A DNA stretch of 64,000 nt, taken from IMG/VR virus record IMGVR_UViG_3300021339_000006, positions 12,798-76,797 of that record; one strand, given 5' to 3'. Numbering within the stretch: the first letter of the stretch is position 1; every line of letters starts with the position of its first letter. Positions 3,900-53,307 of the stretch are shown here, piece after piece. The notes below the pieces were generated by a model. It was not told the origin of the DNA. It worked only from the letters and a program-made list of their open reading frames with translations, and made no database searches. Origin of the DNA: a virus. Both the position numbers and the translations under genes were made by a program.

Positions 3900-4964
3900 T
3901 CAGGGAGCCACGCCGTGGACAATACCAGTCTGTCCATCGTAGTCCGAGCGAAGCTGCGGAACCCAGATCGCCATCACTTTGAAATGCACGCGCATTCCGC
4001 CGTCCGTCTCCCACTGCAAGGTGGTGATGTCCATACCATTCACGAGCCGCGCCACGTCGCTCGTCATTTGCACGAGGATCATTTGGAAGCCAGTGAGGTA
4101 ATCGACAGTTTGGATTTCCGACACGCCGTTGATCTGCATCAAACGCTGGCGGACGGAGTTGTCTCCCTTCTCGTCGCTGTAGTCATTGTCCAAGAACAAG
4201 TCCCAGTCCGGCGAGACGTAGAGCGTCCACGGGCCGAAGTAGTTATTGTTGGTGGACAACTGGCGCATCTCGAGCACCTCGTTGAGCAAGGTCTTCGGAG
4301 TCCAACCACTTGCTGTCGGATTCGTCAACACCTGAGTCAACCGCCCAATGTAATTGGTGAGGCCGTAAACAGTCCCGCCGCCGTAGCTGTATGTCCCAGC
4401 AGTGCCGAGGAACAGTTTCTCAGCCTCTTCCGTCACCTTGCGCGCAGCCAACTGCGCTGTCGTGGTGTCCACGCCCTGACCATTGTTGCGGGAGACCGCA
4501 ATCTGGCGTGCGTTGAAGAAGAAGTCCTTGTGAATCACGGGCAACGGAAGGTTGATCGTGTCCGTCTCAGGGCGATCGCCTTCGCTCTTACGCGCCGGAT
4601 CCATGCTGATGGTCGCCGGTGTGATGTCGCCCATCCGATCCGACTCAAGCACTGTTTTACCCATGCCGTTGGGCACAGTGTAAACCAAGCCCTTGCTGCG
4701 GAAGTCCGAAATGATCCGGAGCCGTTCACGCGCAGCCATTGTCACTGCGTCGTCGATCTGTTTCCACTCGTCTTTGCGCAAAGTGGCGTTCCGAGTCAAC
4801 ACTGGTGTGGACACCAGCTTGTTGGTTCGGAGGTCCTTTGTGGCAATGTAGTGCCGCCCGTCATCCCCAACCCAGGGACGCAGTGTGGCAACGTCGAAGC
4901 CGTTGGTAAGGAGCGTCGAAGCGACGTTCCCTATGGCGCGGCCATTGTAAATGAAGTCTTTCAT
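3900..4964 (-). CDS. major capsid protein (HK97 fold, encapsulin/linocin M18-like family)
   Basis: TLRKDEWKQIDDAV, LPLPVIHKDF and GLTN motifs. 354 aa, follows protease and decoration genes. Confidence 0.85.
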   Translation of the reverse strand: MKDFIYNGRAIGNVASTLLTNGFDVATLRPWVGDDGRHYIATKDLRTNKLVSTPVLTRNATLRKDEWKQIDDAVTMAARERLRIISDFRSKGLVYTVPNGMGKTVLESDRMGDITPATISMDPARKSEGDRPETDTINLPLPVIHKDFFFNARQIAVSRNNGQGVDTTTAQLAARKVTEEAEKLFLGTAGTYSYGGGTVYGLTNYIGRLTQVLTNPTASGWTPKTLLNEVLEMRQLSTNNNYFGPWTLYVSPDWDLFLDNDYSDEKGDNSVRQRLMQINGVSEIQTVDYLTGFQMILVQMTSDVARLVNGMDITTLQWETDGGMRVHFKVMAIWVPQLRSDYDGQTGIVHGVAP

Positions 4965-13344: not shown

Positions 13345-13773
13345 TTAACCGCGTGATTTGCGAGACGGAGCCGGAGGAGGTGTCTCCTCATCCTCTTCGT
13401 CGCCTTCTTCTTCGTCATCGGCTGGGATCAGCTCGTCCTGAGACTCCGGCGCCTCAGCAACTTCCACGGTGGTGGCATCTTTGTGCGCCACTGTGTAACC
13501 AATCTCCACAACCAGCGGAGTCACGTCTGGACCGACGTGAGCGTCAACCTGAACGCTGACAACCTTGTCGCCAAGCGCGCCGTCACCGTTGACATAAATG
13601 ACAATCTCCTTCTGGCTTGAGTCAGGTGAAATTGTGGGCGCGGACGAATCGCCTTCCACAACTGCACCGACAGCAAACGCGCCACTGTCCAGCACGTCCA
13701 CTGCCTCATCAGGCGTCAATGTCAGTTTGCGCCGGTAGCCTGGCTTGATGGACTTCTTGAGTTGAACTCTCAT
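13345..13773 (-). CDS. hypothetical beta-rich protein with acidic tail
   Basis: Start MRVQLKK with SD-like GGAAGAG and ATGA overlap. Confidence 0.55.
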   Translation of the reverse strand: MRVQLKKSIKPGYRRKLTLTPDEAVDVLDSGAFAVGAVVEGDSSAPTISPDSSQKEIVIYVNGDGALGDKVVSVQVDAHVGPDVTPLVVEIGYTVAHKDATTVEVAEAPESQDELIPADDEEEGDEEDEETPPPAPSRKSRG

Positions 13774-13937
13774 TTCTCTTCCTTCTTTGGTATTGGTTCG
13801 TCTCCGCCGTCTTCCACAAGGATTACGAACGGGACGCGCCTTGGTTTTGGTTTTGTCTTGCATGATAGCAGGGTCATGGCCGCCAACACGACGGCACCCG
13901 CAGTCAACGCGAAGCTGATTATCAAAGCTGTTTTCAT
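13770..13937 (-). CDS. small putative lipoprotein (55 aa)
   Basis: Not in ORF track. MKTALIISFALTAGAVVLAAMTLLSC-KTKPK gives a signal peptide plus LLSC lipobox; ATGA overlaps on both sides. Confidence 0.5.
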   Translation of the reverse strand: MKTALIISFALTAGAVVLAAMTLLSCKTKPKPRRVPFVILVEDGGDEPIPKKEEK

Positions 13938-15397
13938 GGGCGCAATGGGACGGTTGGTTTCACTGTCGGGCGGCCGCGTTTTGTCTCACCGTTCTTTTCT
14001 CCCTCCTCCTCTTCATCCTCCTCCGGTTCCTCAAGAGCACGCTCCTCTTCCTCGAGTTGGACTTCCTCCATGCGTTCGCTGGCTGCATCAATGACAGCTT
14101 TGGCTTCATCGTCTTCCATTCCGAGGATCAGTGTGAGGTAATGGAACGGCGGGATCAAAAGATCGACGCCACCCATCGCATACTTTGCCAGCGCAGTAGT
14201 CTTCATCGACGCCACCTCTGCCTTCTCCTTGTCGCTGGGCGTATTGAGGTCGGGCCAGTGAACCTGAATCTCCTTGGGCTTGGACAGCGCGCCGAATGCA
14301 ATCAGCCGTTCTACTGTTGGCAGGATTACAAAAGGCGTGACGTATTCCTTGCGCCTGCGCGTGAGGCGTTTGATCCAAGCGCGGGCGTCCTGTTCGGATG
14401 CTAGTTGCGCAGCTTCTGACCCGATAAAAACGCGCCATGGGACTCCTAGGGCGGCAGCAATCAGCTTTATTTGAACCTCTACATGCGAGCCAGGGTCGGC
14501 TACTTGTGGCGTCAAGCTTTTTGCAGACATGCCCTGGAGCGCAATGTAACGCTGGAGCCCTTCCATGTAGGCTTCCAACTGTTTCTTTGTGCCCTCCTCG
14601 TCGATCTCAACGTCCTCCCCAGGCAGCGTTTCCAAGGACAGTCCTGGGAAGCCTCCCTTCCAAAACATCTCGCCACTGCCACCTGAGATCTTCTTCAAGT
14701 CCAGCAGTCGATTGTAAACCTTCTCCATCCGAGGCAGCCCGTAAACATCACTGGACATTCGGTTGTCTGCGAGGTGGATGATGCGCGACCAGTGAACCTT
14801 GTTGGAAGCGACGGCATTGGCTGTTCCCTGCACGTCCTGAAACTGGATGTTGTAAAGGACTGGAAGACCGTAGCGCGGGTTGGAGGTGTTGGTTTCGAAG
14901 GCGTCAATGCGAACCACCTGTTCATCGAAAGGTCGCACGTAAAGCAGCTCAAGCTTGGCATTGGCGTTGGTGATGATGTCACCCTTCTCTGTGATCCCTG
15001 GCGCAGGTTCGCTCAACGCCTTGCCGTCACTCAAGCCCAACAGCACCACACCGAACCTGCCGATCCCACTGAGAGTGTCCGCGCGCTGCAAGACAGAGAA
15101 CAGCCTGTGTTTCTTTTCCAGCTCAATGAACTCTTTCTCAAAAGGAGTTTCGGTTTGCTTCTCTGTCTCGAAGACTTCTGGATTCTCCGCCCACGTCTCC
15201 TCCGGCCACACAGAAACAACACGTGACGCAATGTCTCCGCGCAGGAACGCCTTCTTGCAATCCTCAGTGGTGACCTCAGATGGGTGCCCACATTCCTGGT
15301 CGATGTCGCGCATACTGTCGAGCTGCCGGCGCAGCCACAATTGGCGTTCGAGGAGGATGTTTTGAACTATCGCGGCATTGACAGCGAGTTTACTCAT
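13934..15397 (-). CDS. portal protein (DUF1073-like)
   Basis: YGLP..Y, VHWSRIIH, YG.PR, SGE.FW and GVPWRVFIG motifs. Size and position also fit. Confidence 0.85.
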   Translation of the reverse strand: MSKLAVNAAIVQNILLERQLWLRRQLDSMRDIDQECGHPSEVTTEDCKKAFLRGDIASRVVSVWPEETWAENPEVFETEKQTETPFEKEFIELEKKHRLFSVLQRADTLSGIGRFGVVLLGLSDGKALSEPAPGITEKGDIITNANAKLELLYVRPFDEQVVRIDAFETNTSNPRYGLPVLYNIQFQDVQGTANAVASNKVHWSRIIHLADNRMSSDVYGLPRMEKVYNRLLDLKKISGGSGEMFWKGGFPGLSLETLPGEDVEIDEEGTKKQLEAYMEGLQRYIALQGMSAKSLTPQVADPGSHVEVQIKLIAAALGVPWRVFIGSEAAQLASEQDARAWIKRLTRRRKEYVTPFVILPTVERLIAFGALSKPKEIQVHWPDLNTPSDKEKAEVASMKTTALAKYAMGGVDLLIPPFHYLTLILGMEDDEAKAVIDAASERMEEVQLEEEERALEEPEEDEEEEGEKNGETKRGRPTVKPTVPLRP

Positions 15398-15432
15398 CGC
15401 GGAACTGTAATTCCTGCCACCGCAGAAGCAAA
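15398..15432 (-). promoter_or_regulatory. putative leaderless sigma70-like promoter of the portal gene
   Basis: TTGCTT-N16-TACAGT-N6-ATG. Confidence 0.45.
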
Positions 15433-15442
15433 CGTTTTACAT

Positions 15443-15643
15443 TCACGTGGTCGAGAAACTCTTTTCCGCTGTGAGTTCGCAGACGAGGTGGGTGGTTTCC
15501 TTCAAGTCCTTCCATGTGACACCGTAGGTTGGTTGCTGCCCAGGGCGGACATAAATTCCAGTCACGATGCCCGCGCTTTCCGAGACCAGCTTGTGATACA
15601 CAGTGCTCTCGAGTGGAAAGGCGATTTCAAGGACAAACTTCAT
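15443..15643 (-). CDS. hypothetical protein
   Basis: Compact ORF with ATGA overlap. Confidence 0.55.
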   Translation of the reverse strand: MKFVLEIAFPLESTVYHKLVSESAGIVTGIYVRPGQQPTYGVTWKDLKETTHLVCELTAEKSFSTT

Positions 15644-16020
15644 GCGCCGTTGGAGGTTGGTAGTTCGCTAGGAGCTTCTTCACTGTCACCAAACTCCTGC
15701 CACATCCAGCGCACCACGTAGTCCATCACGGAAGTAGCCATCGGGATGTCGGGATTCTTGGTAGGGCCGCGAGGATCGAACTGGGTATGGGAAAGCTTAC
15801 GCACAATGTCCGCCAAGGAAACGCCACGCTGGAGCGCCATGCTAATGAGGATGCCGATGCAGCCCCACGTTCCAGCGTCCGCAGACTTGCCCATGTTCAC
15901 AAACACCTCACCAGGCGAGCCGTCGTCAAACAAACCTACCCTGATGTAACCCTTCACCGGCCCAACTTTGAACTTGTGGACAATGGCTGCGCGCGTCTCT
16001 GACAGTCGCCTACGTTCCAT
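15640..16020 (-). CDS. stand-alone class II ribonucleotide reductase C-terminal (TSCPD) domain protein
   Basis: RRRL..TR..IVHKFKVG..KGYI.VGLFDDGSPGEVF...SMALQRGV...F.P.G.T.NPDIP.ATSVMDY. Confidence 0.8.
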   Translation of the reverse strand: MERRRLSETRAAIVHKFKVGPVKGYIRVGLFDDGSPGEVFVNMGKSADAGTWGCIGILISMALQRGVSLADIVRKLSHTQFDPRGPTKNPDIPMATSVMDYVVRWMWQEFGDSEEAPSELPTSNGA

Positions 16021-16441
16021 GCTTCTCTCCCACTGGACCGACGCGACGCGACGGAGGACCATCTACTTTCTTAATACCTGCATCATCCGCCAAGATGTTC
16101 TTCTCCAGTTCTCCAACCATGGGTGATTTGGTTCGCATGTCCAGCACGCGCAGGCGTCGCATTCCAGCAATGCGCAGCAGGATCAGGTAGCCAAGCAAGT
16201 CCAACACAACGTCCTCACCGAACGCATTGGGACTGGATGCCATGCGACTCAGCTTGTCGTCGAGGCGCACCTTGATCTGTTCCGCAGCATCCGCTTTGGA
16301 GAAGATGCGAACGGGATTGAGGGCAGAGTCACCATACGCCCTGTTCTTCTGAATCAGGAGCGTTTGGATTTCATTGCAGACAGTTGCGATGTCTGCCTGA
16401 GTTTGGAGCAGCATCTCTTCTGTGGTTTCGTTGCTAATCAT
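16010..16441 (-). CDS. nucleotide-modification-associated domain protein (DUF1599/Nmad1-like)
   Basis: KNRAYGDS...IKVRLDDKLSR...DVVLDLLGYLIL. Confidence 0.65.
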   Translation of the reverse strand: MISNETTEEMLLQTQADIATVCNEIQTLLIQKNRAYGDSALNPVRIFSKADAAEQIKVRLDDKLSRMASSPNAFGEDVVLDLLGYLILLRIAGMRRLRVLDMRTKSPMVGELEKNILADDAGIKKVDGPPSRRVGPVGEKHGT

Positions 16442-17364
16442 ACCTTTGAATACTTTGGAATCCACGCTCCTTCGGCCGTCTGGTCGAAGTCACACATCAA
16501 ACGCGGCTCCTTCTCCACTAATATCTTCGCCACCTTGGAAAGCGCCACGGCGATTTCCTCCTCCGCTGCTGGGGACGTGCGCAGCGCAATGATGTGCCGC
16601 AGTGCGCGCAGGTTCAGCGACCAAACTCCGCCTGTCGCTACGCCCATTGGAATAATCCGGCGCAGGCAAGAGGTGAGCTGCTTCTTGAGATGGAAATTGT
16701 TGTTGGAATTGTCGATGTCCCACGTCTTCATCAAGTCAACATAGGCTTCCTGCGCAAACTGAAAGACACTGGCGAATACCTTCTGCGTATAACGCTTCTT
16801 GCTTGCGAGGTCATACAACTTCATCTGCGGAGATTTGCTAGGCTGCCCAGGAGGCACGTTCCACGGATCTAACTCCTCCAAAACTTCTCGCTCTTCCTTT
16901 GTCAATCGAATGGACGAGGGCATCCACCAAGGGATGTCTGTGAACCGAATGTATCTCATGGAACCCTCGCTGATCGCCACGCCCGCGCGATGCCTGTTCA
17001 TCTCGCCAGTAAAGACTCGGCTGACTCCTTCGATGGCAAAGTTGTAGGTGGCGTGTTCGAGGACAGAACCATGACCGGACTTGAGGATGTTCTCAAAGTA
17101 TTCGTGCCAGTCCTTGCGCACCTTGGTGACGTTTGGATTCAAGCCAGGCTCGAAACTCATGTAGCAGCGTTTGGCAGCGAGCCCAATGATGGATTCCGCA
17201 CCACTCAAAGGCTTGTGCTCACTCATGCTCCCAATGCCTTTGAAACAGCCATCTTGAGGCCAGGCGTATTTGGTAGCGCCTACATGATCCAACCACCTTC
17301 GAATCTCAGCGTCATCCGCTTGCGTCGCACCAATACAAAAGACCTCAATTTCAACATTTCTCAT
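16438..17364 (-). CDS. thyX: FAD-dependent thymidylate synthase
   Basis: GHGSVLEHA, RHR......SMRY and NLRALRH..LR....AEEEI motifs. Confidence 0.92.
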   Translation of the reverse strand: MRNVEIEVFCIGATQADDAEIRRWLDHVGATKYAWPQDGCFKGIGSMSEHKPLSGAESIIGLAAKRCYMSFEPGLNPNVTKVRKDWHEYFENILKSGHGSVLEHATYNFAIEGVSRVFTGEMNRHRAGVAISEGSMRYIRFTDIPWWMPSSIRLTKEEREVLEELDPWNVPPGQPSKSPQMKLYDLASKKRYTQKVFASVFQFAQEAYVDLMKTWDIDNSNNNFHLKKQLTSCLRRIIPMGVATGGVWSLNLRALRHIIALRTSPAAEEEIAVALSKVAKILVEKEPRLMCDFDQTAEGAWIPKYSKV

Positions 17365-17537
17365 CGTGAACTATTATCTGGGCAGGACTCGGCTGAATGC
17401 AGCTTCGTCACGGTTAGCAGGAATACGTTTGGATTTGACGGTGCGTGGCTTGGCAAACAGGTAACCACCAATGAAGCCGAGCACAAAGTTGACAGCCATG
17501 CAGACAATCAACGTTCCAATGAATTGATCCAACGTCA

Positions 17538-18056
17538 TCATAAAGAGCTTGGAGCTAGGTCTAGTTTGTCACCGACTTTGACAGGAAATTCCAACCGCCA
17601 CTTCATCAATCCGCTCTTCACCGCACCGAACACCACAGGCATGTTGGTTTCGTCGATGGGAATAGGCTGGAGCGTTACAATCCAATTGGTGATGGTGTGG
17701 TTCGTGTTGTCAGGCACGCCATCCTCGCCTTTGCCGACCTGTAACACTGGACGCTCCTCTACCTTGAGCACTTGGAAGCGCGTTGTCCACGGCGCTGCTT
17801 TGTTACGCGCTTCCTGGGCAGCCTTGCGCATTTGCACCGACATAGGCGCAGCGGGTGGCATGATCGAAGCATGGTTCGTGTTGATAGTTGTGAGGTTGGT
17901 GGTGTGCATCACCTCCACCTTGGTCCCTGCAGGCGCAATGACGGTAATGGAATTGCCTAGCTGCGCCGCTGCTTTCTCGTTGCAGCTAAGGGCAAGTCCG
18001 AAAGCAAGCACCAGCGCCGCAGGAAAGAAATCCCAAAGTTTCTCAAGGTTTCTCAT
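17538..18056 (-). CDS. hypothetical membrane/secreted protein
   Basis: Hydrophobic N-terminus followed by LSC. Confidence 0.5.
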   Translation of the reverse strand: MRNLEKLWDFFPAALVLAFGLALSCNEKAAAQLGNSITVIAPAGTKVEVMHTTNLTTINTNHASIMPPAAPMSVQMRKAAQEARNKAAPWTTRFQVLKVEERPVLQVGKGEDGVPDNTNHTITNWIVTLQPIPIDETNMPVVFGAVKSGLMKWRLEFPVKVGDKLDLAPSSL

Positions 18057-18227
18057 TTGCGCTTTCTGGGTTGGTAACAAACATGGGCGCCTTCTTTGCG
18101 CGCTCGTCCGTTACGTGAATTTGATTGTCGGTAGAGGCGCGCAGGATTGTGTCGCTGTCCACAGTCACCACAACCATTCCATCGGTTAGGATGACTTCGA
18201 TTCGGTTCGCGTTGTGAATATCGGCTT

Positions 18228-18422
18228 TCATGGTTTCCTGTAGTGGCAAAACTTGAAGCTCTTCCCGCTCCCGCACGCGCAGGGTGAATAAAGCTTGATT
18301 TGCCTGTTGCTGGTTTCCTTGGCTGTCAAATCCCGTTTCACTGGAATGTAATCTTTGCGCTCCGCGCGAGGGAGCTTTTGAATTTCTTCCTCGTTAATGA
18401 GGACGCCTGTTCTTGTGTTCAT
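18228..18422 (-). CDS. SEC-C motif protein
   Basis: PCACGSGKSFKFCH. Confidence 0.75.
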   Translation of the reverse strand: MNTRTGVLINEEEIQKLPRAERKDYIPVKRDLTAKETSNRQIKLYSPCACGSGKSFKFCHYRKP

Positions 18423-18736
18423 GATTTCACTTTTGTTGGTTTGGGCAGTGGTTGCCAGTGTGTGGGCCGGACTGTAACGGATCGAGGTTCATAGCTAAGG
18501 CCGCTCCATCGTCCTCCGTGCTGTAATACAGCAACATATGCCGCCTCCCAATGAGGTTCACGGCTGCAAAGGTTTGGATCGTTCCCCTTCTCTAACGCAT
18601 CCATGATTTGGTTATTGTGAGCACAGTCTACCCACATGCCTTGGCACACCACGTTTTCCTCATCTGATCCAAAGGAAGGATAGCAAAGGAGAATCTGCTC
18701 GTCCATCGGTGCAGTGCTAATTGGGCGCCACCTCAT
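18419..18736 (-). CDS. DUF551-like hypothetical protein
   Basis: WRPISTAP...PTHWQPLP. Confidence 0.7.
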   Translation of the reverse strand: MRWRPISTAPMDEQILLCYPSFGSDEENVVCQGMWVDCAHNNQIMDALEKGNDPNLCSREPHWEAAYVAVLQHGGRWSGLSYEPRSVTVRPTHWQPLPKPTKVKS

Positions 18737-19377
18737 GGGATCGTGATGCGGTAAAACTTGTGCGGCCCTTCCATGTCCAGTGGATAGCTGTCCGCGTTGT
18801 TTGTGTAAAGGAACACCTGCATCACCGTTGTCCATTCGATGAGGTCAACAGAGGACAACAATGTGCCCATGCGCGCAGGCACAGGCAGCGGACCATAGTA
18901 GGCAGGAAACGCGTAAGGGTAGTTCACCTCATCAACAGGAATGTAATCCTTCACCAGTCCACGCTCCCAGCGCGTGCTGGCTGAGCCTAACCAAAGCGTA
19001 GGGAGCCCATCCTCGCGCAGGCAGTAGAGCAGCCTGGGCTTTGGAACGTCGGGCAGGGTTGTGGACTTAACATCGAAGGCTGGAGGGTAGTAGTCCCAAG
19101 GCAGGTTCGTGAAGTAAACGCGCTCAACTGTTACCAGCAGCGAGTCCAGCGCCACTCCCTCAGGCAGGTAGAAGGAAAGGTTGGTTTCGTTGTGGTCGCT
19201 GAAACGCTTGTCCTGAATGCCGTCGAGGCGCTTCATTGCTTTTGCTGCGCGACATCCTGCGTAACCTAAACCGATTGCCACGATGGTGAGAACTGCTACT
19301 GCGCAGATGATGTTTGCGGCAGCTTGCCACCACGCGCAAAGCAGTGCGGCAACCGATAGGTTTGTCCTTGTGTTCAT
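18733..19377 (-). CDS. membrane-anchored protein with C-terminal S.DL..W...FYR motif
   Basis: N-terminal TM segment; ends LLSSVDLIEW...HKFYRITIP. Confidence 0.55.
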   Translation of the reverse strand: MNTRTNLSVAALLCAWWQAAANIICAVAVLTIVAIGLGYAGCRAAKAMKRLDGIQDKRFSDHNETNLSFYLPEGVALDSLLVTVERVYFTNLPWDYYPPAFDVKSTTLPDVPKPRLLYCLREDGLPTLWLGSASTRWERGLVKDYIPVDEVNYPYAFPAYYGPLPVPARMGTLLSSVDLIEWTTVMQVFLYTNNADSYPLDMEGPHKFYRITIP

Positions 19378-19666
19378 TCGATCCTCCATGCCATCCACGC
19401 TCCGAGGCAAACGCAAGCCACCAACCAAAACCCGAGGAGGGCTTTGCGCTGGCGACTCAGTTGCCTGAGCTGGGTGACTGTTGTCCGTATTGTGTTCACA
19501 GCCCTATTATCTAGGGCTTGGGCAAAGCCACTGCAACACAAAGCGCGAGGACAGCCACGCACAGTGTGGCAACCGGAGGAGTGATGGTGAGTAAAGCGAG
19601 GATGGTGAGAATGGCTGCAATCACCACAAAGAGTCGTTTGGTCGTCATGCGTCCAACGTAGCACGC

Positions 19667-19882
19667 CTACCAAATCCCGTCTTTGTGTTCCTGCTTGAGC
19701 GCGTCCAGGTTGCGCCGAGTGTAATCTGCCACCACGTTCCCTGGTGCAAAGGAGGCACTGGGTTTGCGATCCCGCATTCCATTCACCCAAAGCCAATGGA
19801 AATACTGCGCGGGAACGTCCTGCATCCGAACGCCTTTGTGCAATCCGAATGGCATTGGATCAGTGTCCTCAAGTGGCTTCAT
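19667..19882 (-). CDS. DUF3820-like small protein
   Basis: MPFGLHKG..MQDVPAQYFHWL. Confidence 0.7.
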   Translation of the reverse strand: MKPLEDTDPMPFGLHKGVRMQDVPAQYFHWLWVNGMRDRKPSASFAPGNVVADYTRRNLDALKQEHKDGIW

Positions 19883-20169
19883 TGAATGTAGGTGAGAGTC
19901 AGTCCGCCACTAAGGAGAATGCGCGCAACCACCACACGGTTGTCCGGAGCCACAAACCAAGTGATGGCATAGGTTCCGTTGTCCACCGTGTTTGCGTATC
20001 CGATCGGACGGAACCCAGCGTCGGTTAATTGCACACGGACATCTCGAATGGTTTCTATCAGCTTTGCTTGGCGTTCCTCTGTGGCTTCGGTTTCTTCTGC
20101 CCTTGCCGCGGCTGCCTTCTCCTGTCGGTTGATCTTTCGATTCAACCACCAACGTGTAATTGGATTCAT
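19879..20169 (-). CDS. hypothetical protein
   Basis: Compact ORF in an operon. Confidence 0.5.
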   Translation of the reverse strand: MNPITRWWLNRKINRQEKAAAARAEETEATEERQAKLIETIRDVRVQLTDAGFRPIGYANTVDNGTYAITWFVAPDNRVVVARILLSGGLTLTYIQ

Positions 20170-20170
20170 G

Positions 20171-20530
20171 TCAGCCTTTCCCAAGTGGTTCTTCCATGTC
20201 GTCACTATCCTCACCTGGATCTTTGTAAGGTGGGCGCAGGAACGATCCACATTCAGCCATTGCAGCAACACCGACAGCCGTCACCTGCCGAATCTCGTCG
20301 AGAACGTCAACATTGTTTCCATGCCCATTTACCCATGCTGCTTTGGCTTTGAGCAAGCACTGTTCCTGGATTAGAAGCCACTCACCGATTGTGTGCGTGT
20401 GGTTTGGATACTTGGCTTCCTGATACAGACGCTCCGACCAAATTGCGTCCACCACTTCGAGTGGGATCAGGCGTCGAATCTCCTCCGCTGTTCCCTTAGC
20501 CGTTTTCCTTGCTGTTGATTTCTTCTTCAT
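20171..20530 (-). CDS. hypothetical, possible MazG-like all-alpha NTP pyrophosphohydrolase fold
   Basis: SERLYQEAKY...GEWL...DEIRQVTAVGVAAM. Confidence 0.45.
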   Translation of the reverse strand: MKKKSTARKTAKGTAEEIRRLIPLEVVDAIWSERLYQEAKYPNHTHTIGEWLLIQEQCLLKAKAAWVNGHGNNVDVLDEIRQVTAVGVAAMAECGSFLRPPYKDPGEDSDDMEEPLGKG

Positions 20531-20534
20531 AAAT

Positions 20535-20647
20535 TGGAAGGCGGGCACCTCGGACTTGAACCAAGGAACAATGCGTCACCACAGAAGCCGCTCTCAGAGT
20601 CGCGTGCTAGGCAGCTACCTGCATCATCTGTTCCGTTACATGCCCAC
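20535..20647 (-). ncRNA. tRNA-like RNA lacking a canonical D-arm and anticodon arm
   Basis: Acceptor-like GTGGGCAT/GTGCCCGC, T-arm CTTGG-TTCAAGT-CCGAG, inner helix GGAACA/TGTTCC, 3' end ...CTTCCA. Confidence 0.55.
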
Positions 20648-20659
20648 ATAAAACAAAAT

Positions 20660-20727
20660 GCCAGGCAAGCGACCGCCCCCACAGTCACGCGCAGTGTTTA
20701 GTAGGAACTGCGCGCTGCTTACCTGGC
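20660..20727 (-). ncRNA. structured RNA, three-way junction
   Basis: Closing stem GCCAGGTAAGC/GCTTGCCTGGC; inner stems GCGCGCAGT/ACTGCGCGT and GACTG/CGGTC. Confidence 0.5.
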
Positions 20728-20738
20728 GAAATCAAATA

Positions 20739-20822
20739 CTGGAAGGCTGATGGATCTGTTCTGGTGCTTTCTCGCGGCCGCCTAACAATTTCCATCCAGC
20801 GCACACTGCCGTTGCCTTCCAG
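20739..20822 (-). ncRNA. structured RNA
   Basis: Closing stem CTGGAAGGC/GCCTTCCAG and inner GATGGA/TCCATC. Begins 7 nt after an AGATAAT motif. Confidence 0.45.
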
Positions 20823-20958
20823 CAAGAACATTATCTCCGCTCCTTGCAAAGGCACTTCCTACAAATGCGTTTCTTTCTACTCGGGCTGTAGCACCAATCG
20901 TGAAACCCTAGTGCGCATTTGATGGCGTCAATCAAATCATCGAGGAACAGTGGACGCC

Positions 20959-21309
20959 TCATTTGAAGTGCTCCTCAAGGAAGATATCGGTCATGTCCAC
21001 GCCTCTCGAGCATGAGAGGCTGGAGCTTTCGATCCCTGCGCGTGCCATGTCATACATCAGCGACATGATCGCAGCCAACGCACCTGCCCGTTGCACACTG
21101 TCCAGAGGCGCAAGCTCCGAGCCCATCCGTTTGATAATGACCGCCGCCATCTTCTGATTGCGGACGTCTTTGAAGAACTTGGGATGACGCAGGCGCAAAT
21201 ACTTCATTGCGTCTTCTGTTGTCCTCACGTTCTGGATGCGTGCCATGCCAGTAGCAGGCGCTCCCATCACAGGTGCGCGTGAGTTGGTTATTGATTTTCT
21301 CGTTGCCAT
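20959..21309 (-). CDS. hypothetical protein
   Basis: ORF in tight operon. Confidence 0.5.
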   Translation of the reverse strand: MATRKSITNSRAPVMGAPATGMARIQNVRTTEDAMKYLRLRHPKFFKDVRNQKMAAVIIKRMGSELAPLDSVQRAGALAAIMSLMYDMARAGIESSSLSCSRGVDMTDIFLEEHFK

Positions 21310-21319
21310 TACCGTTTGC

Positions 21320-21562
21320 TTATTTCCTTTTCCTTCCGAATGCACCCTTGCGCAGCTTCTCCAAGTCCCGTGCGAAATCGAGGCACACCTTCCCATGCTT
21401 CTCTCCCAAACAGCGCGTTGCCTTTGATTTGAGAGCGTCAATGAGAACATCCAAGTCCTTCTTGTTCAACAAAATCGCCACAGTTCCTTCCTCTCCCAAG
21501 CGCGCAAGGAGTTTGCTCTCAATGACCTCACGATGGACGAGTTCTGTGCGTGTGACTGCCAT
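21320..21562 (-). CDS. hypothetical protein
   Basis: ORF in tight operon. Confidence 0.5.
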   Translation of the reverse strand: MAVTRTELVHREVIESKLLARLGEEGTVAILLNKKDLDVLIDALKSKATRCLGEKHGKVCLDFARDLEKLRKGAFGRKRK

Positions 21563-21996
21563 TACCGTTTGCCCTTCGTCCCGCCTGCATCGAAGTAGGC
21601 TTTGCGCGCTTCCTGAGCGTATCCTTTGAACTCCTTAGCGAGGTGCCGGAACATCTGTGCCATCTCATCTCGATTGCTGATAAACTCACACGCTGCGCGA
21701 TCCAGGAACTTTTGTGGGATCGCCTCCAAGGCCACTGCCTGCCCAAGCAAGTGTTCCTGTTCCACAAGCGCAGCAACGCCTGGACCTTGCTCTTCCAAGA
21801 GTGTCTCCAACCGTCCATGCAACTCTGTCCAGTTCTTTTTATCGTATTTGCGCTGCAATTTTGCGTCATCACAAACACGATTGAACAGTTCCATCGTAGG
21901 TGACGACACGTTCCCTAGTGGAAACTTGGTGGTGATGTTTGGGAAGGTTTGCCTATGACTTGTGTCTCGAAATGTATCTGATTCAATATCACTCAT
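21562..21996 (-). CDS. hypothetical protein
   Basis: Preceded by the AGATAACAAAGC-ATG motif. Confidence 0.55.
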   Translation of the reverse strand: MSDIESDTFRDTSHRQTFPNITTKFPLGNVSSPTMELFNRVCDDAKLQRKYDKKNWTELHGRLETLLEEQGPGVAALVEQEHLLGQAVALEAIPQKFLDRAACEFISNRDEMAQMFRHLAKEFKGYAQEARKAYFDAGGTKGKR

Positions 21997-22002
21997 GCTT
22001 TG

Positions 22003-22299
22003 TTATCTCCCTTCCAGCTCGTAGTCGTAGTGGGCTGTCAGTCCAACGCGCTCATCCACCCATCCACCTTCCTTCAACACTGTTTTCTTGGGCTTGCGCT
22101 TGGACTCTTTCTCGTTCCGCACAAAGATGATTTTCTTCTTCCCACAGTCCCTGCATATGATGTGGTGGCTTGGATACAAGCTGCCGTCGCCGACTACTGA
22201 AGAATCCCTCAACATTTTGATATTGGTGTGCTTGCATCCTTCCTGCAACGCGTCGATCTCGTTTTGATGGCGACGCTTCATGTCCAACAGCTTGCTCAT
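22003..22299 (-). CDS. hypothetical Zn-ribbon protein
   Basis: CKH...CRDCG. Confidence 0.5.
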   Translation of the reverse strand: MSKLLDMKRRHQNEIDALQEGCKHTNIKMLRDSSVVGDGSLYPSHHIICRDCGKKKIIFVRNEKESKRKPKKTVLKEGGWVDERVGLTAHYDYELEGR

Positions 22300-22694
22300 C
22301 TGTAATCTCCGTTCCGTGTTGTGAGGTAATTCCAACCTTCCCACTTGTCTTCAAGCTCTTGTTCAGCTTCGGACACGTCCCCTGGTTTGCGCACGCCGCA
22401 TTTCTCACACCAGGTTTTGCGGCCGGTTACGATTGGAGGATTTGTTCCACGCGTGCTTTCAAAGACCTTCCAAACGTGCTCACATGCTTCGCTCACTTGT
22501 CACCTACTTTCGTGTAAAGCCAATATCCACCAGGGTAGATGGTCAGTATCTGAGTGGATGCAGGCTTTGTCACCTGCACCTCGATCCGTTCAGGACGTGC
22601 GTAGATTGCGTCCACCACAGCCTCGCGTGCCAGTGCGCTTGCATCAGCAGCAACGATCCTGTCGCCCTTCTTGAGTGTGTTGATGTTGAGCATA

Positions 22695-23219
22695 TCAAAG
22701 CGCCTTGTCCGCAAAGTAGCGTTTCGACAGTGAGGAACGTTTAGCTGGTTTTCTCTTTGAGGGTGCAATGTGTTTCATCAAACGCTCTCGAACCGCTTTC
22801 TTTGCTTTGGGATTCTTGGTAGGTTTGCCGGGCATTACTTGAAATCCCACCTTATCCGATAGCTTTTCCAATGCTATCTCTTGCGCCTTCACCTTTGCCT
22901 GCAATTCCTTGAACGCCTTCTCCATTGGTGAACTACCCTTACGCAACAGCGGCGCCTCGTCGTCCTGATCGTGTCCTCGATCCTCCTTGCGATTGCGCAG
23001 TTCTCGTTGGCGCGACCACGTCGTCACGTTGTTAAACACCAGTTGCGCATCCTCTACCATTACCAAAGCGCGCTCAATACAAGAGTTGAGCATTGCGAAT
23101 TCATCCTCTTCTTCCTCGTCGGCGTCCTTGAAAACGCCTACCATCATCCTGATCCCTTCCGCTCCAGATTCCAGCTTACTGCTTACGTCCTCAACTTCTT
23201 CTTCTGTTAGGATTTGCAT
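22695..23219 (-). CDS. hypothetical protein
   Basis: 174 aa ORF with acidic N-half. Confidence 0.55.
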   Translation of the reverse strand: MQILTEEEVEDVSSKLESGAEGIRMMVGVFKDADEEEEDEFAMLNSCIERALVMVEDAQLVFNNVTTWSRQRELRNRKEDRGHDQDDEAPLLRKGSSPMEKAFKELQAKVKAQEIALEKLSDKVGFQVMPGKPTKNPKAKKAVRERLMKHIAPSKRKPAKRSSLSKRYFADKAL

Positions 23220-23243
23220 ACAATTATAAAGATGTTGAGCATT

Positions 23244-23471
23244 TCACTTTGCCTTGTGGAGGTCCATGCCTGGCAGCCTGGGTTTGCGACCATTGCGGCG
23301 GTCATACTCCATCGTGACTTTGAAATGGCCTAAACGTGAGTTGCTGAGGGACGCCACAGCACGCGCAGCCGCAATAGCCTCTTTGGTAGGTTTGTCCTCT
23401 CGACATACGTCCTGTGCCTTCTTGTCCAACATCCGGCACCAATCACTTGACTTTAGCAGTGGTTCTTTCAT
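23244..23471 (-). CDS. small helical hypothetical protein
   Basis: Preceded by the AGATAACAAAGC-ATG motif. Confidence 0.55.
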   Translation of the reverse strand: MKEPLLKSSDWCRMLDKKAQDVCREDKPTKEAIAAARAVASLSNSRLGHFKVTMEYDRRNGRKPRLPGMDLHKAK

Positions 23472-24018
23472 GCTTTGTTATCTTCCGAATCACCCGTTTC
23501 AGTTTCACCAAACTACGCTTCTCTTCAACCATTGGTTGTGGGAATAAAGAAAAAGGAATGCCTGTTCCTCGATGGAGTAAGGTTTTCACATACACCACAT
23601 CCAGCCTTTTGCGCTGGTTTTGTTTTTGATCCAACACCTTCCTTGGGTTCTGGCAATACAATGCGCGCCGTCTTGCCAGTAGCCTTTTTCGATTTGCAGC
23701 ACGATATCGGCGTTGGTTCTCCAAACACCTTTCCTTGTTTTGAGAACGCCACGCGCTTTGTTTTTCTAGGCGGACTTTCCGGTTCTTCCACCAGCGCCTT
23801 CTTCGCAACTCAGCAAAATGCTCTTTGTTCCTATCCATATAGGAACGAATCTTATCAGGATTTTTCTTTACCCAGCTCTTTCGGTAACGTTGGCGCTCCT
23901 TCTTATGCTTACTAGCATACACACGCGCACGCTCCCGAAGCACTTTGCGGTTTCGTTGATAATAGCATTTCCTTCGCGCACGGTAGGCTTCTTCGCTTTC
24001 ACCTTTACGCCGACTCAT
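23443..24018 (-). CDS. very basic helical-repeat protein (resembles HNH N-terminal repeats but has no nuclease motif)
   Basis: Repeats such as YYQRNRK, WVKKNPDK, YMDRNKE and YRAANRK. No HNH or CxxC motif. Confidence 0.6.
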   Translation of the reverse strand: MSRRKGESEEAYRARRKCYYQRNRKVLRERARVYASKHKKERQRYRKSWVKKNPDKIRSYMDRNKEHFAELRRRRWWKNRKVRLEKQSAWRSQNKERCLENQRRYRAANRKRLLARRRALYCQNPRKVLDQKQNQRKRLDVVYVKTLLHRGTGIPFSLFPQPMVEEKRSLVKLKRVIRKITKHERTTAKVK

Positions 24019-24052
24019 ACCATAGTATCTCCGCAAGTGACCGACCGGAGCC

Positions 24053-24332
24053 TTAATTCTTTCGACGGTGTGCTACCATTGCAGCTTCCTTCTCTGCGTG
24101 GAAGGCGCAAATCTCTTTGTAATACTTTTCCAAAATCTCAGCGCCCTCGTCCTCACTCGGCTTCTCCGACGCCCCACGCAGCTTGAGCGGAACAGCAAAG
24201 GAAAGAAGCAAACCAACAGTCCCTAAGCTGTGCCTTCTGTTGAGGTGGAACGCCTTTGCGATACACCTGCTTGAGGAAATCCTCAAACATTTCGTCTATC
24301 GAGGCTCCCAATTTGAATGGTGGAAATTCCAT
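24053..24332 (-). pseudogene. apparently frameshifted small gene
   Basis: ATG 24332 frame stops at 24153, while the +1 frame continues SEDEGAEILEKYYKEI to 24053. Confidence 0.35.
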
Positions 24333-24349
24333 ACGCTATTATCTGTGGC

Positions 24350-25771
24350 TTACCATGCAGCGCCAGCCATCTTTTTCTTCTTGGCGATCTTATTGAAACC
24401 ACCACTGGCTGCATCGACTTGGTCATCATACTTGCCATGCGGAAAGTATTTCAGCTCGTCAATGAAGTCCTTCGTCCAGGCGCGCTTGAGGCAGTAGACG
24501 TTCCCGGCACCCATCTGCGATGCCAATGGATAAGCACGTGCTTCCTTGTCCCCTGTAGGGTGGAAGGCAATGACCTTGAACCCAGCCAGGTTGCGCACTG
24601 TGCTTTCCCCTGACTCCTTTCCTCCTGATCCTCCTTCGATCTCAATCACTACCGGCACCTCGTCCCCATCCTCCTCTGCCGTCTCTGCAATCCTCTCTTC
24701 CCGCTTAGTGGCGCCCCATTGTCCTCTGCGCACATCACATATCCAAAACTTACCCTTCTTGTCCACACCAATGCGGACGCCTGCTGACCAGTTGCCACCA
24801 TCGGGCGTGCCTGCTTTGTCCCAGGAACGAACCATGCGCAGGAGCTTCGGTTCGTTGTCCTCATAAACAACCTTATCAGTCTCAAACATGCCACCACCCA
24901 GAGGCACAGGATCTTGGAGCACTTGACTGGCGTATCCGTATGCACCCAGTTCCTCCTTCAGCGTTTCCAACACTTCCCTTGGCATCCGCACAGGATCGAG
25001 CAGTCCATCCACGTAATACTTTTTGAGTCCTGGTGGTGAGATGCTTTTATGCAATTCCCCAGGCAGGCAGATATGTTTGATCTGTCCAGCCTTGCGCGCC
25101 AGTAATTCTCCACTGGGATCAGCCTGCCCTAGGCGTTGCTGCACCAGTATCAGTGGCGAGACCAGCTTGTCCACTTTGCGCGTTGGCAGTGTGGTAGTCA
25201 TCCATCTGTTAATGCGTTTGATTTCAACCTGCGAATAACTCTCCTCAGGATTGATCGGATCGTCCACCAGCTGGAAGTGTCCGTGATAACCTGTGATCGC
25301 ACCTCCAACACCGACGCACAGGCGGGATCCCATCTGCGTATTGGTAAACAGCCCCTTGGTGTTTTCGTCCTCGCGCAATTGGATGTTGGGAAAGCAGGAT
25401 TGGTATTTGTCTGACTGAACCAAATCCCGCGCCTTCAAGCTGTCCTTCATCGCCACCGCCTGCGCGTAGGATGCGCAAACAAACTTGGCACTTGGCAAGC
25501 GAGTCCAAACCCAAGCAGGAAATGCCTGGCTGACAATAGTGGACTTGGTGCTGCCAGGAGGAACGTTGATTACCAGATCGTAGGCTTTTGGTTCTCCAAG
25601 GAACACGCGCTCTGCCATCACTTGCAACTCATCGCACAGGTATTCCACATGCCAATTCAGCACTGGCTCCTCTGCCACGATCACAGTCCAAAACTCCTTC
25701 AGGAACTCGTAGAAAGAATCCTTCACGATGGAAGCCAGGATCGTGAATTCGTTTACCTTTACGTCACTCAT
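24350..25771 (-). CDS. terL: terminase large subunit
   Basis: Walker A VPPGSTKS, Walker B LVDDP, nuclease SWDKAG and DDQVDA. Confidence 0.93.
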   Translation of the reverse strand: MSDVKVNEFTILASIVKDSFYEFLKEFWTVIVAEEPVLNWHVEYLCDELQVMAERVFLGEPKAYDLVINVPPGSTKSTIVSQAFPAWVWTRLPSAKFVCASYAQAVAMKDSLKARDLVQSDKYQSCFPNIQLREDENTKGLFTNTQMGSRLCVGVGGAITGYHGHFQLVDDPINPEESYSQVEIKRINRWMTTTLPTRKVDKLVSPLILVQQRLGQADPSGELLARKAGQIKHICLPGELHKSISPPGLKKYYVDGLLDPVRMPREVLETLKEELGAYGYASQVLQDPVPLGGGMFETDKVVYEDNEPKLLRMVRSWDKAGTPDGGNWSAGVRIGVDKKGKFWICDVRRGQWGATKREERIAETAEEDGDEVPVVIEIEGGSGGKESGESTVRNLAGFKVIAFHPTGDKEARAYPLASQMGAGNVYCLKRAWTKDFIDELKYFPHGKYDDQVDAASGGFNKIAKKKKMAGAAW

Positions 25772-50866: not shown

Positions 50867-52264
50867 TCAGAACGTGGAAAGGAGGCAGGGACAAGCGATT
50901 CCCAAGTTCCCTGCTGTCCACACGTTGTCTGTGTCTGCCCACTCGCCATCTCGAAGGAATACCCAGTTCAGACGGTAAATACCCATCTTCTTTTCGTCCG
51001 ACGTTTGATTGATCCCGCACATGCCAGTCACGTGCGCGTTCTTGCGCTTGTCCTCAGAAAAGTCCTTCTTGCGTATCATCCTCGAATCGTAAGCCGTCGC
51101 CGCTGCCTGGGTAGCGGTAACGACCAAGCAGTGGTTGTCCAAAGAAACCCGACGCATGATCTTCCACGATTCGTTCACCTGGTGTCGGTATTCCATGGAC
51201 TTGGTGGACGCTTCCGGCGCCAGCAAATCTATGTAATCCACCACCACCACATCAGCCACCCAACCATCTCTTGCAAACTCTGCAACGTCCCGTTCGATGT
51301 CACTTGCAGAAATTACTGACGCACCAACGCAGCGCACCTTGACTGGAAGTTCCTTGGACGCTGTGGCCTGCCTCAGCTTCTCCGCTACTGCCGCCACGTC
51401 TTTCCTTGAAAGTCCAATCCGGCGTTTGTTCCTAAACTTGACCCGGCCCTCTCCATCCCTCACAAGCAGGCGTCTGGGGAACCGAATGATCTTCGTCTTG
51501 AATGGACGCCTTGTTGCGCGCATGTAAAGCCGACGGAACGCCTGATCCTCGCTCATGTCACCCAAAACGTAGTAAAGCACCTTCTTCCGTTGCCGTATGC
51601 CCTGATACACAGTTTCGAGCAGCCAAAAACTTTTGCCACGTTTCTCTGGCGCAGCAAACGCAATGAACCCATCACGCTCAAAGTGTGGGGAAAGGAACTC
51701 GTCGAGGGCGCCAGGGAATTGGATCAGTGTCCTGTCCTGGTCATAATAATGAAACGTCTTCCGAATACTCTCCTTGGAAAACGGATCGCTCCAGTCGGAG
51801 GAGGAAAAGCTCACGGATTTGAAATCTGTGAGGTAGCTCTTGGCTTCCTCCGCGTCCTCATTGTCCAACGCTTGCTGCATTCCTTCTGCCGTGCGCGTCA
51901 ACCGAACGCGCTCAAAGTAGGCTGAGGAAAGGTCGATGAGGTATTTCTCATTCATCTCTTCTGCCACTGCCTCATGGTCTTTGCTGAGCCTGGACAGGAA
52001 CGCCTCGATTACTTCTGCAACGTCCGGATCTTTTATTTTGTCCGCGTGTTTGTGATACAGGTTGGTAATGTGTTTGCGTGGTGCTTTGTGGTAGCGACCG
52101 AAGTAGGCAAAACACCAATGCGCTATAAGGTTCGACCACTTGTTCTCAAAGGGACGTTTCTCACCAGCCATCCTCCCGTGGACGGCAGCAAGCACGCCAT
52201 CGTTAACAATTAACGCAACAAGGATGGCGCGTTCCTCATTGGACTTTACAGGGACGGACTTCAT
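50867..52264 (-). CDS. replicative helicase (DnaB-like)
   Basis: APEKRGKS, VVVDY, ATQ and SED..K motifs. Confidence 0.85.
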   Translation of the reverse strand: MKSVPVKSNEERAILVALIVNDGVLAAVHGRMAGEKRPFENKWSNLIAHWCFAYFGRYHKAPRKHITNLYHKHADKIKDPDVAEVIEAFLSRLSKDHEAVAEEMNEKYLIDLSSAYFERVRLTRTAEGMQQALDNEDAEEAKSYLTDFKSVSFSSSDWSDPFSKESIRKTFHYYDQDRTLIQFPGALDEFLSPHFERDGFIAFAAPEKRGKSFWLLETVYQGIRQRKKVLYYVLGDMSEDQAFRRLYMRATRRPFKTKIIRFPRRLLVRDGEGRVKFRNKRRIGLSRKDVAAVAEKLRQATASKELPVKVRCVGASVISASDIERDVAEFARDGWVADVVVVDYIDLLAPEASTKSMEYRHQVNESWKIMRRVSLDNHCLVVTATQAAATAYDSRMIRKKDFSEDKRKNAHVTGMCGINQTSDEKKMGIYRLNWVFLRDGEWADTDNVWTAGNLGIACPCLLSTF

Positions 52265-53160: not shown

Positions 53161-53165
53161 AATCC

Positions 53166-53265
53166 AAAAAGAAACCGCCGTCCCTGGGAGGTCGAAATGG
53201 CGTAGGACGTGCCACTCCCAAAGACGGCGATCAAAGTCTTCATCCCTACTTGGCTTTCGACAGCC
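53166..53265 (-). promoter_or_regulatory. structured leader/attenuator with two complementary box pairs
   Basis: Long hairpin 53176-53229 followed by a U-tract; boxes GTCGAAA/TTTCGAC and GTAGG/CCTAC. Confidence 0.55.
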
Positions 53266-53307
53266 GCTTTCATTGCATTTCCATTATCTCCTACACCGCT
53301 TTATTTC

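Follow-up and report, generated by a model that had tools for sequence, protein, structure and literature searches.

The window analyzed here, 64,000 nucleotides (nt) long, comprises bases 12798-76797 of a 76.8-kb IMG/VR virus record that is rated complete, and the locus of interest is the 300 nt of its minus strand that lie between two small genes. The upstream gene, orf43 (20831..20962), is known from the list of open reading frames (ORFs) and encodes a 43-aa small Cys/His-rich protein with a weak match to phrog_15926 (E 0.0017). The downstream gene, orf119 (20171..20530), encodes a conserved four-helix protein recognized by its family profile and structure model. Between them, in the direction of transcription, are three closed-stem elements, element 1 (20739..20822), element 2 (20660..20727) and element 3 (20535..20647), separated by U-rich spacers, and the same stretch is covered by two minus-strand ORFs, orf48 and orf53. 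The 300 nt most likely encode folded RNAs, not proteins, and the last of the three elements is an anticodon-less tRNA-like RNA.

Element 3, as defined from sequence, folding and a pattern scan, consists of a 5' acceptor strand (20647-20640), an interior of 74 nt (20639-20566), a T-arm (20549..20565), a 3' acceptor strand (GUGCCCGC, 20541..20548) directly 3' of the T-stem, and a CUUCCA tail (20540-20535). The 8-bp acceptor stem GUGGGCAU/GUGCCCGC directly abuts the T-arm, CUUGG-UUCAAGU-CCGAG, and the two form a 13-bp stack that can be read as 8+5 or 7+6 bp. The T-arm has a G53-C61-type closing pair and the loop nucleotides U54, U55, C56, A57 and A58; in the terms of our pattern, a 5-bp stem with a UUCRANY loop is stacked straight on a 7-bp acceptor stem. 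The stack is intact in all 13 of its pairs, as is the T-loop at all seven positions; three of the acceptor and T-stem pairs are G.U, and the acceptor pairs have probabilities of 0.86-0.93 when the whole locus is folded. The T-arm and the 8-bp acceptor-like stem had been proposed at these positions in the original prediction, and both sequence and folding confirm them. A D arm and a canonical anticodon arm are absent: when all hairpins with a 7-nt loop were listed, only the T-arm had at least 4 pairs together with U33 and R37.

The combination is rare by chance. This is the only T-arm pattern on either strand of the 76.8-kb genome, and shuffled sequences give 0.30 per genome; a T-arm joined to a 7-bp acceptor stem is expected 0.04 times per 77-kb genome on both strands (153.6 kb of strand), which for these 300 nt on this strand amounts to an expectation of about 8e-5. 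The ATG of orf119 follows the CCA end of element 3 after 4 nt (AUUU) and has no Shine-Dalgarno sequence. A structure that is so rare by chance and that lies directly upstream of a member of the orf119 family is very unlikely to be a coincidence, for the reason that follows.

The orf119 family comprises conserved proteins of about 90 residues with the consensus ...EVYxAIDSERDYQD...IRKIAAxGVACMEQHGAPxR. The orf119 model is a four-helix bundle (predicted local distance difference test, pLDDT, 87), and its matches to MazG-like folds are weak, none reaching E<=0.001. The family corresponds to no Pfam family, and seven of 48 members match phrog_2831, which is of unknown function. Single-sequence scans of IMG/VR with orf163 and orf119 gave no relatives, and a profile scan of metagenome contigs with the orf119 family gave 62 loci, 61 of them distinct. 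A T-arm lies on the same strand within 600 nt of the family gene in 10 of 61 other loci, and on the opposite strand in none. The density of T-arms beside the family gene is 0.216 per kb, compared with 0.006 per kb in control phage loci chosen by their terminase, a difference of about 35-fold. The neighbors include canonical tRNAs (loci L052, L053, L084, L086, L096 and L102), accompanied at L053 and L096 by odd long or D-armless tRNAs. In two further loci a permuted (two-piece) transfer-messenger RNA (tmRNA) begins 7 nt after the stop codon of the family gene (L090:1243-1497 and L091:3268-3523; Rfam RF04321, 102.6 and 89.8 bits). The orf119 homolog of L060 is preceded, at a distance of 13 nt, by a 90-nt RNA (L060:2573-2662) that resembles the tRNA-like domain (TLD) of tmRNA and has G3.U70, A73 and the motif GUCGAC. 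An 86-nt TLD-only mini-tmRNA with G3.U70, A73 and an encoded CCA is found at L068:3220-3305, about 2.7 kb from the family gene, and matches RF00023 at 60.2 bits with the whole middle of the model deleted. The orf119-type genes, a widespread family, mark the sites of tRNA, tmRNA and mini-tmRNA genes in phages, several odd ones among them; this is the most transferable result of the analysis and may be more robust than the interpretation of element 3 itself.

Some of these neighborhoods hold RNAs that are of interest in their own right. The 90-nt RNA of L060 is preceded in tandem by a 57-nt mini tRNA-like RNA (L060:2511-2567) composed of an acceptor stem, one hairpin and a T-arm; neither of the two matches Rfam at E<=1, and ARAGORN calls a 377-nt tmRNA across the region. 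One phage tRNA cluster at L053 contains four tRNA-like genes of 120-140 nt (1284-1420, 1686-1805, 2665-2804 and 2825-2949). In each of them the acceptor stem and T-arm are normal and a D-arm, or a stem resembling one, is present, but an insert of 45-70 nt precedes the anticodon region; the inserts have the motif GCCGAUUGGAUGAAGGUU in common. ARAGORN calls none of the four, and Rfam recognizes only part of one (1738-1806, 32 bits) in a different acceptor register. Other odd phage tRNAs are found at L096:3323-3391 and 4611-4759 and at L024:7325-7419 and 13553-13636, and among them are an amber-suppressor-type tRNA without a D arm, a tRNA of 149 nt that carries two long inserts, a gene of 95 nt to which ARAGORN could assign no anticodon, and one of 84 nt just above the Rfam threshold (31.7 bits). 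The orf119 family is also present in Rhizobium phages of 154-159 kb, such as RL2RES and RHph_I46, where there is no annotated tRNA within 2.5 kb of it.

The two elements that precede element 3 are stable, branched structures. Element 1 is Y-shaped and 84 nt long, with a closing stem of 9 bp, CUGGAAGGC/GCCUUCCAG; its folding energy is -32.1 kcal/mol (z -2.96 against dinucleotide shuffles), and its closing pairs have a probability of 0.94 in the fold of the whole locus. It is separated by the first U-rich spacer (UAUUUGAUUUC, 20728..20738) from element 2, a 68-nt three-way junction in which the 11-bp closing stem GCCAGGUAAGC/GCUUGCCUGGC holds an inner 9-bp hairpin and a 6-bp hairpin with a GGGG loop. 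Element 2 folds at -40.6 kcal/mol (z -5.11), none of 200 shuffles being as stable, and in a regression of minimum free energy against G+C content over 70-nt windows it is about the ninth most stable locus of the genome, among approximately 1100 independent windows. Its G+C-rich 11-bp stem stands directly before the U-tract AUUUUGUUUU, so that by our criterion it is flagged as terminator-like; its branched 46-nt 'loop' is atypical of an intrinsic terminator. The second U-rich spacer (AUUUUGUUUUAU, 20648..20659) leads into element 3. The three elements and their spacers had all been predicted where sequence reading and folding now place them, and the spacer sequences UAUUUGAUUU and AUUUUGUUUUAU are present as proposed. 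Paralogy among the three elements was considered and rejected, the local alignments between them being no better than those of shuffled sequences.

The sequence GCCUUCCA occurs twice in the locus, as had been noticed before. The direct repeat that surrounds it matches at 13 of 16 positions, which is the level of chance repeats within the same 800 nt, so the two copies are real and the repeat is unexceptional. The copies had also suggested a switch of about 290 nt, and this raises the possibility of a cis-acting leader of orf119, in which the region would be a structured 5' untranslated or intercistronic region and pairing of the 5' UGGAAGGC with either GCCUUCCA copy would gate the translation or processing of orf119. 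The second copy ends 4 nt before an AUG that lacks a Shine-Dalgarno sequence; the fold that uses the distal copy exists on paper, only 2.5 kcal/mol above the minimum; and RNase P cuts tRNA-like structures in polycistronic mRNAs. However, the distal pairing accounts for only about 6% of the ensemble, and alternatives of this kind are usual in RNAs of 300 nt. A comparable leader is present in none of the 61 other orf119-family loci, other TLD-only and tmRNA genes were found to have no such structures ahead of them, and no ligand or sensor is evident. We therefore consider a regulatory leader improbable.

Our preferred interpretation, to which we give about an even chance of being right, is that the locus is non-coding and that its last module is a tRNA- or tmRNA-derived mimic of the upper half of tRNA, released by RNase P and 3'-trimmed from a two-domain leader, that acts as a decoy. 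The broader proposition, that a tRNA or tmRNA gene gave rise to element 3 at all, is by our own reasoning, not by computation, very probably true. We counted in favor of the decoy interpretation the geometry of the stack, the gene neighborhood, the codon usage of the overlapping ORFs, the stability of elements 1 and 2, the precedent of mycobacteriophage DS6A, and the absence of the 21-mer spanning T-loop and acceptor strand from species genomes, the last three of these being taken up again below. In this model the 300 nt would be co-transcribed with the minus-strand genes on either side. The last 107-113 nt would represent a tRNA- or tmRNA-derived gene that kept the coaxial acceptor/T-arm upper half and either lost the D and anticodon arms or never had them. 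RNase P would read the 13-bp acceptor/T stack and cut 5' of G20647, freeing element 3 from the leader formed by elements 1 and 2, and the U-rich linkers would be likely entry sites for RNase E. Trimming at the 3' side would part element 3 from the orf119 message, which begins 4 nt later. The mature RNA would then imitate a tRNA's top half, as a counterpart of the TLD-only mini-tmRNA of DS6A, and might occupy a host factor that reads the acceptor stem and T-arm, for which SmpB would be the prime candidate and defense nucleases directed at tRNA ends the second. The processed small-RNA operon, the decoys and the protein sponges suggested in the original prediction are conjectures of the same kind.

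A number of observations weigh against this interpretation. The fold of element 3 has a z of +0.12, no more stable than dinucleotide shuffles, and the long branched helix that had been described as replacing the anticodon arm fares no better than shuffled sequence. The original prediction that the element ends in CCA was inexact: the CCA does not directly follow the discriminator, which is C, but lies two bases out of register in the tail C-UU-CCA. Alanine identity is missing, since the acceptor stem has G1-C72, U2.G71 and G3-C70 instead of G3.U70, and C in place of A73. The criterion for a tRNA was a score of at least 29 bits, the gathering score of Rfam RF00005, or detection by ARAGORN with default parameters. 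ARAGORN at its defaults finds no gene, neither tRNA nor tmRNA; the Rfam tRNA and tmRNA models give no match at gathering scores, nor at E<=10 in 801 nt and in 126 nt around the element; and RF00005 gives no score above the reporting threshold anywhere in the genome. A TLD-only covariance model, R2, that we built from the L060 and L068 RNAs has no match in the window at E<=10, although it does give 27-31 bits to the tmRNA pieces of L090 and L091 and 12-22 bits to several tRNAs. Neither SmpB, nor a CCA-adding enzyme, nor another tRNA was found in this phage. Several of the loci that rank above element 2 in stability sit inside genes, so stability alone is weak evidence. The locus is, moreover, a singleton, with no homolog in IMG/VR, in cultured phages, or in related or metagenome loci: blastn against cultured phages, exact IMG/VR scans seeded with parts of element 3 and of element 2, blastn and nhmmer searches of 34 loci chosen by the large terminase (TerL) and 69 chosen by orf119, and a covariance model of element 2 (R1) run over 745 kb of loci each failed to find a relative of the RNA, and consequently there is no covariation available. 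Finally, the gap is tiled exactly by orf48 and orf53, a disposition that 5000 shuffled gaps reproduce at a rate of only 0.24% by a strict count and 1.5% by a loose one, and GGAG stands 8 nt upstream of the first ATG.

The last two observations bear directly on whether the gap contains ordinary small genes. It had been described as ORF-free, which is incorrect: orf48 (20685-20831, 48 aa) and orf53 (20527-20688, 53 aa) tile it on the minus strand, with the junctions TAATG, GTGA and ATGA across the gap. On this view both would be translated, in coupling with orf43 and orf119, and it would be by coincidence that the stretch folds as RNA and contains a T-arm. Besides the improbable tiling, such an explanation can draw on the AGGAG/GGAG ahead of the first ATG, on the surrounding island of small coupled ORFs, and on the hydrophobic N-terminus and seven Cys residues of orf53. 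However, codon usage, scored with the long genes of the phage as one reference and spurious ORFs of 45-70 codons as the other, is neutral for orf48 and 10:1 against coding for orf53: the likelihood ratios of real to spurious are 0.91 for orf48 and 0.09 for orf53, compared with 170 for orf119. The scores themselves, -0.015 for orf48 and -0.114 for orf53, are below those of nearly all other genes of the island, real 50-codon chunks scoring 0.16 +/- 0.13 and spurious ORFs -0.16 +/- 0.10. Translation of orf53 would need to begin at a GTG that lacks a Shine-Dalgarno sequence and lies within the locus's strongest helix. Neither ORF has a Pfam or PHROG family match at E<=10 or a tblastn match in approximately 0.75 Mb of related loci, and the exact sequences are absent from a collection of 15 billion proteins, although no homology search of large protein databases was made. 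The public gene call begins at orf119 and includes neither of them. A chance T-arm with acceptor stem, already so rare in these 300 nt, would in addition have arisen beside a gene family that neighbors tRNA and tmRNA genes. Small coding genes are for these reasons given a low probability.

Returning to the interpretation of element 3 as an upper-half mimic, the checks that had been proposed with ARAGORN and Rfam thus gave no full match and fitted no known family. By these tests element 3 is not a member of any family; it resembles the phage mini-tmRNAs in shape. The tmRNA models RF00023, RF01849-51 and RF04321 do not match it, and the same models detect the tmRNAs of L068, L090 and L091. Only at the relaxed settings -ps80 or -ps70 does ARAGORN propose poor models of tRNA-His or of tRNA-Ala with an intron. 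These results could also suit a decaying relic, in which element 3 would be the non-working remnant of a phage tRNA gene, possibly of His type, or of a tmRNA gene, and elements 1 and 2 would be terminators or stability hairpins that end the upstream operon. A relic would account for the failure of every family model, for the three G.U pairs in the stems and for a fold z near zero. The interior also contains sub-threshold traces of a cloverleaf, UA-GCAC...GAGC and a CUGUGGU loop with three of five stem pairs, which ARAGORN accepts only at -ps80. Its alignment to tRNA interiors has a z of 3.1, but other 44-nt interior windows score equally. The phage has no other tRNA, the island is hypervariable, and element 2 with its U-tract is terminator-like. 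Decay, however, would have had to spare all 13 stack pairs and seven T-loop positions while leaving three mismatches among the nine pairs of the putative D and anticodon stems, which is a weak hint that the upper half was selectively retained. A terminator 12 nt upstream would leave no promoter room for element 3 and orf119, and branched domains of 68-84 nt are not typical terminators. We regard decay as rather unlikely, although the likeliest of the alternatives.

The resemblance to mini-tmRNAs invites the question of whether element 3 could itself work in trans-translation. Within its interior, at 20607..20618, a 12-mer scan found GUAGCUGCCUAG, which reads Val-Ala-Ala-stop (GUA GCU GCC UAG) and resembles the end of a tmRNA tag; we record it as a lead only. 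It is identical at 11 of 12 positions to the tag end GUAGCUGCCUAA of the Rfam permuted-tmRNA consensus and is the only 12-mer of the genome within one mismatch of it, and hydrophobic-Ala-Ala-stop sites occur five times in 153.6 kb of strand, an expectation of 0.0024 in the interior of element 3. The earlier statement that the element has no mRNA-like part is possibly too strong, as the interior holds the region's only tmRNA-tag-like ending. On this basis element 3 might be a pseudoknot-free working tmRNA of 107 nt, with a tRNA-like domain, a non-alanine (His-type, G-1:C73-like) end and a tag frame of 6-10 codons, (V T E Q) M M Q V A A followed by stop; charged not with alanine but with another amino acid, it would support a form of trans-translation that redirects or replaces host ribosome rescue, with elements 1 and 2 serving it as a processed leader or as partner RNAs. 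A GGAACA/UGUUCC helix at the place expected for P2, and the true tmRNA genes that adjoin orf119 relatives, speak for it. Against it are the lack of any tmRNA model match or default ARAGORN tmRNA call, the lack of G3.U70 and A73, and a frame that would start 1-13 nt after the acceptor strand, with neither the pseudoknot PK1 nor a recognizable resume-codon context at GUAGCUGCCUAG. The tag-like ending was noticed after the fact. So were the His-like traits, namely the 8-bp stem, which resembles that of tRNA-His in its first pair, G:C, and the C opposite, and the CUGUGGU loop; the likeness is not specific. A working tmRNA accordingly has a very small probability.

Several other identities for element 3 were considered and rejected. 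A specific likeness to tRNA-His was dismissed because an alignment to E. coli hisR was no better than those to leuT or proM and the interior signal was not specific to its window. An archaeal C/D-box or intron reading (sR22, 15 bits, E 0.58-3.7) was judged a chance match to the same GGUAGCUGCC stretch, and the score of a mascRNA match (20 bits, E 0.04) is driven by the T-loop alone. The element is also not the remnant of an attP site, nor a freshly captured host tRNA end, since the 21-mer formed by T-loop and acceptor strand is present in none of 185,579 species genomes; the 18-mer T-arm has 18 matches, approximately the 17 expected by chance.

The closest precedent for the upper-half mimic that we favor is a phage RNA. 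Mycobacteriophage DS6A encodes a tmRNA that consists of the TLD only and lacks a coding sequence (tmRNA Website tmID 11587), and a similar molecule is a strong inhibitor of tmRNA whether or not it can be charged, possibly because it titrates SmpB (PMC4131195, PMC11915505). Phage tmRNAs are common and often unannotated. Like the DS6A RNA, element 3 is phage-encoded and has little beyond an acceptor stem and T-arm; a helix takes the place of the anticodon arm, a working D arm is missing, and comparable TLD-only elements are found on the contigs of orf119 relatives (L060 and L068). Unlike the DS6A type, it has neither G3.U70 nor A73, its interior is 74 nt long instead of a short hairpin, and its T-arm and D-region sequences differ from those of tmRNA and are unmatched by the Rfam tmRNA models or R2, so that the DS6A-type architecture is present in form only. 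Element 3 also has a canonical T-arm, a contiguous acceptor helix and a tRNA-neighboring gene family beside it, in common with the canonical and odd tRNAs of phage tRNA islands (RF00005); in contrast to them it has no D arm and no anticodon hairpin of 5 bp and 7 nt, and it is the only tRNA-like feature of its phage. Natural reduction to the tRNA-like part is also seen in jakobid mitochondria, whose tmRNAs without an mRNA-like domain have kept the G.U at position 3 and the A discriminator (PMC3590771). Element 3 shares the reduction but keeps neither of these. The tRNA gene region of phage T4 contains RNAC and RNAD. These stable small RNAs of unknown function were detected experimentally (PMC9697503). 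They resemble the elements described here as phage-encoded structured small RNAs that are not tRNAs, a likeness by description only, the elements of the present locus being known from sequence alone.

The phage is a tailed phage, with the large terminase at 24350-25771 and the portal at 13934-15397 of the window, and it also encodes a family-A DNA polymerase, an SNF2 helicase, a RecA-like protein and ThyX. Neither an integrase nor a reverse transcriptase was found in it. Its sequence is present in three soil metagenome DNA runs from two studies, no RNA run being listed as a carrier, and is identical in all of them, so there are no variants to read. Kinship with cultured phages is distant, TerL being 34-44% identical to those of phages of Cellulophaga, Rhizobium and Erythrobacter and of vB_RanS_PJN03. 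The locus sits in an island of about 9 kb of small minus-strand genes, with many small coupled ORFs in the ORF list, between terminase and portal, and none of the island genes was found in the phage's TerL-based relatives (TerL 50-67% identical). The terminase-portal interval itself (window 15397-24350) is a cargo site of hypervariable content; among relatives with TerL identities of 44-67% it ranges from approximately 160 bp to 3.5 kb and shares no genes with the 9 kb present here.

The AGATAAT motif (20830..20836) lies ahead of the three elements, as reported in the original prediction, where it had been singled out; it is not a promoter box private to them, for it is a genome-wide motif and its TAA is here the stop codon of orf43 (20833-20831, inside GGAGATAATG), with which it overlaps together with a possible ATG. 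AGATAAY has 13 copies on the coding (minus) strand and two on the plus strand, mostly 0-9 nt before start codons, and could serve this phage as a specific promoter of leaderless mRNAs or as a signal in translation. The minus-strand copies are at 53289, 50826, 50153, 36933, 32938, 29359, 27230, 24344, 23483, 22008, 20836, 19512 and 17379, and three of them are identical (AGATAACAAAGCATG). The genes of the phage mostly lack a Shine-Dalgarno sequence and have A-rich leaders. Two of the copies belong to other structured sites on the minus strand. At 19390-19520 AGATAAT is in the loop of the hairpin CCCUA-GAUAA-UAGGG, which is followed by a long imperfect hairpin of about 25 bp; the 131 nt fold at -61.8 kcal/mol, and the ORF that covers them (19374-19796) has a non-coding-like codon score of -0.18. 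At 53150-53300, which is intergenic, AGATAAT is followed after approximately 55 nt by a strong intrinsic terminator (18-bp stem, UUUCUUUUU), and this site may encode a micro-peptide or a small RNA. The most stable local fold of the genome, at 52745-52810 on the minus strand within a 299-aa ORF (52261-53160), consists of three tandem copies of about 22 nt, CTATCACA(C/T)AAAAGTGTGA..., each with the inverted repeat CACA-N-AAAA-GTGTG, and looks like an operator or iteron array.

There are many tRNA-shaped RNAs in phages that are missed by the standard finders, and they could plausibly act on host translation, ribosome rescue and tRNA-directed defense. The importance of element 3 is potential, and it lies in this context. 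The locus would extend the class of upper-half tRNA mimics of the DS6A type to an RNA with no alanine identity, with a long interior, and with two very stable RNA domains ahead of it. If element 3 is active, such mimics would need only the acceptor/T-arm stack. The association with the orf119 family provides a practical way to find more such RNAs.

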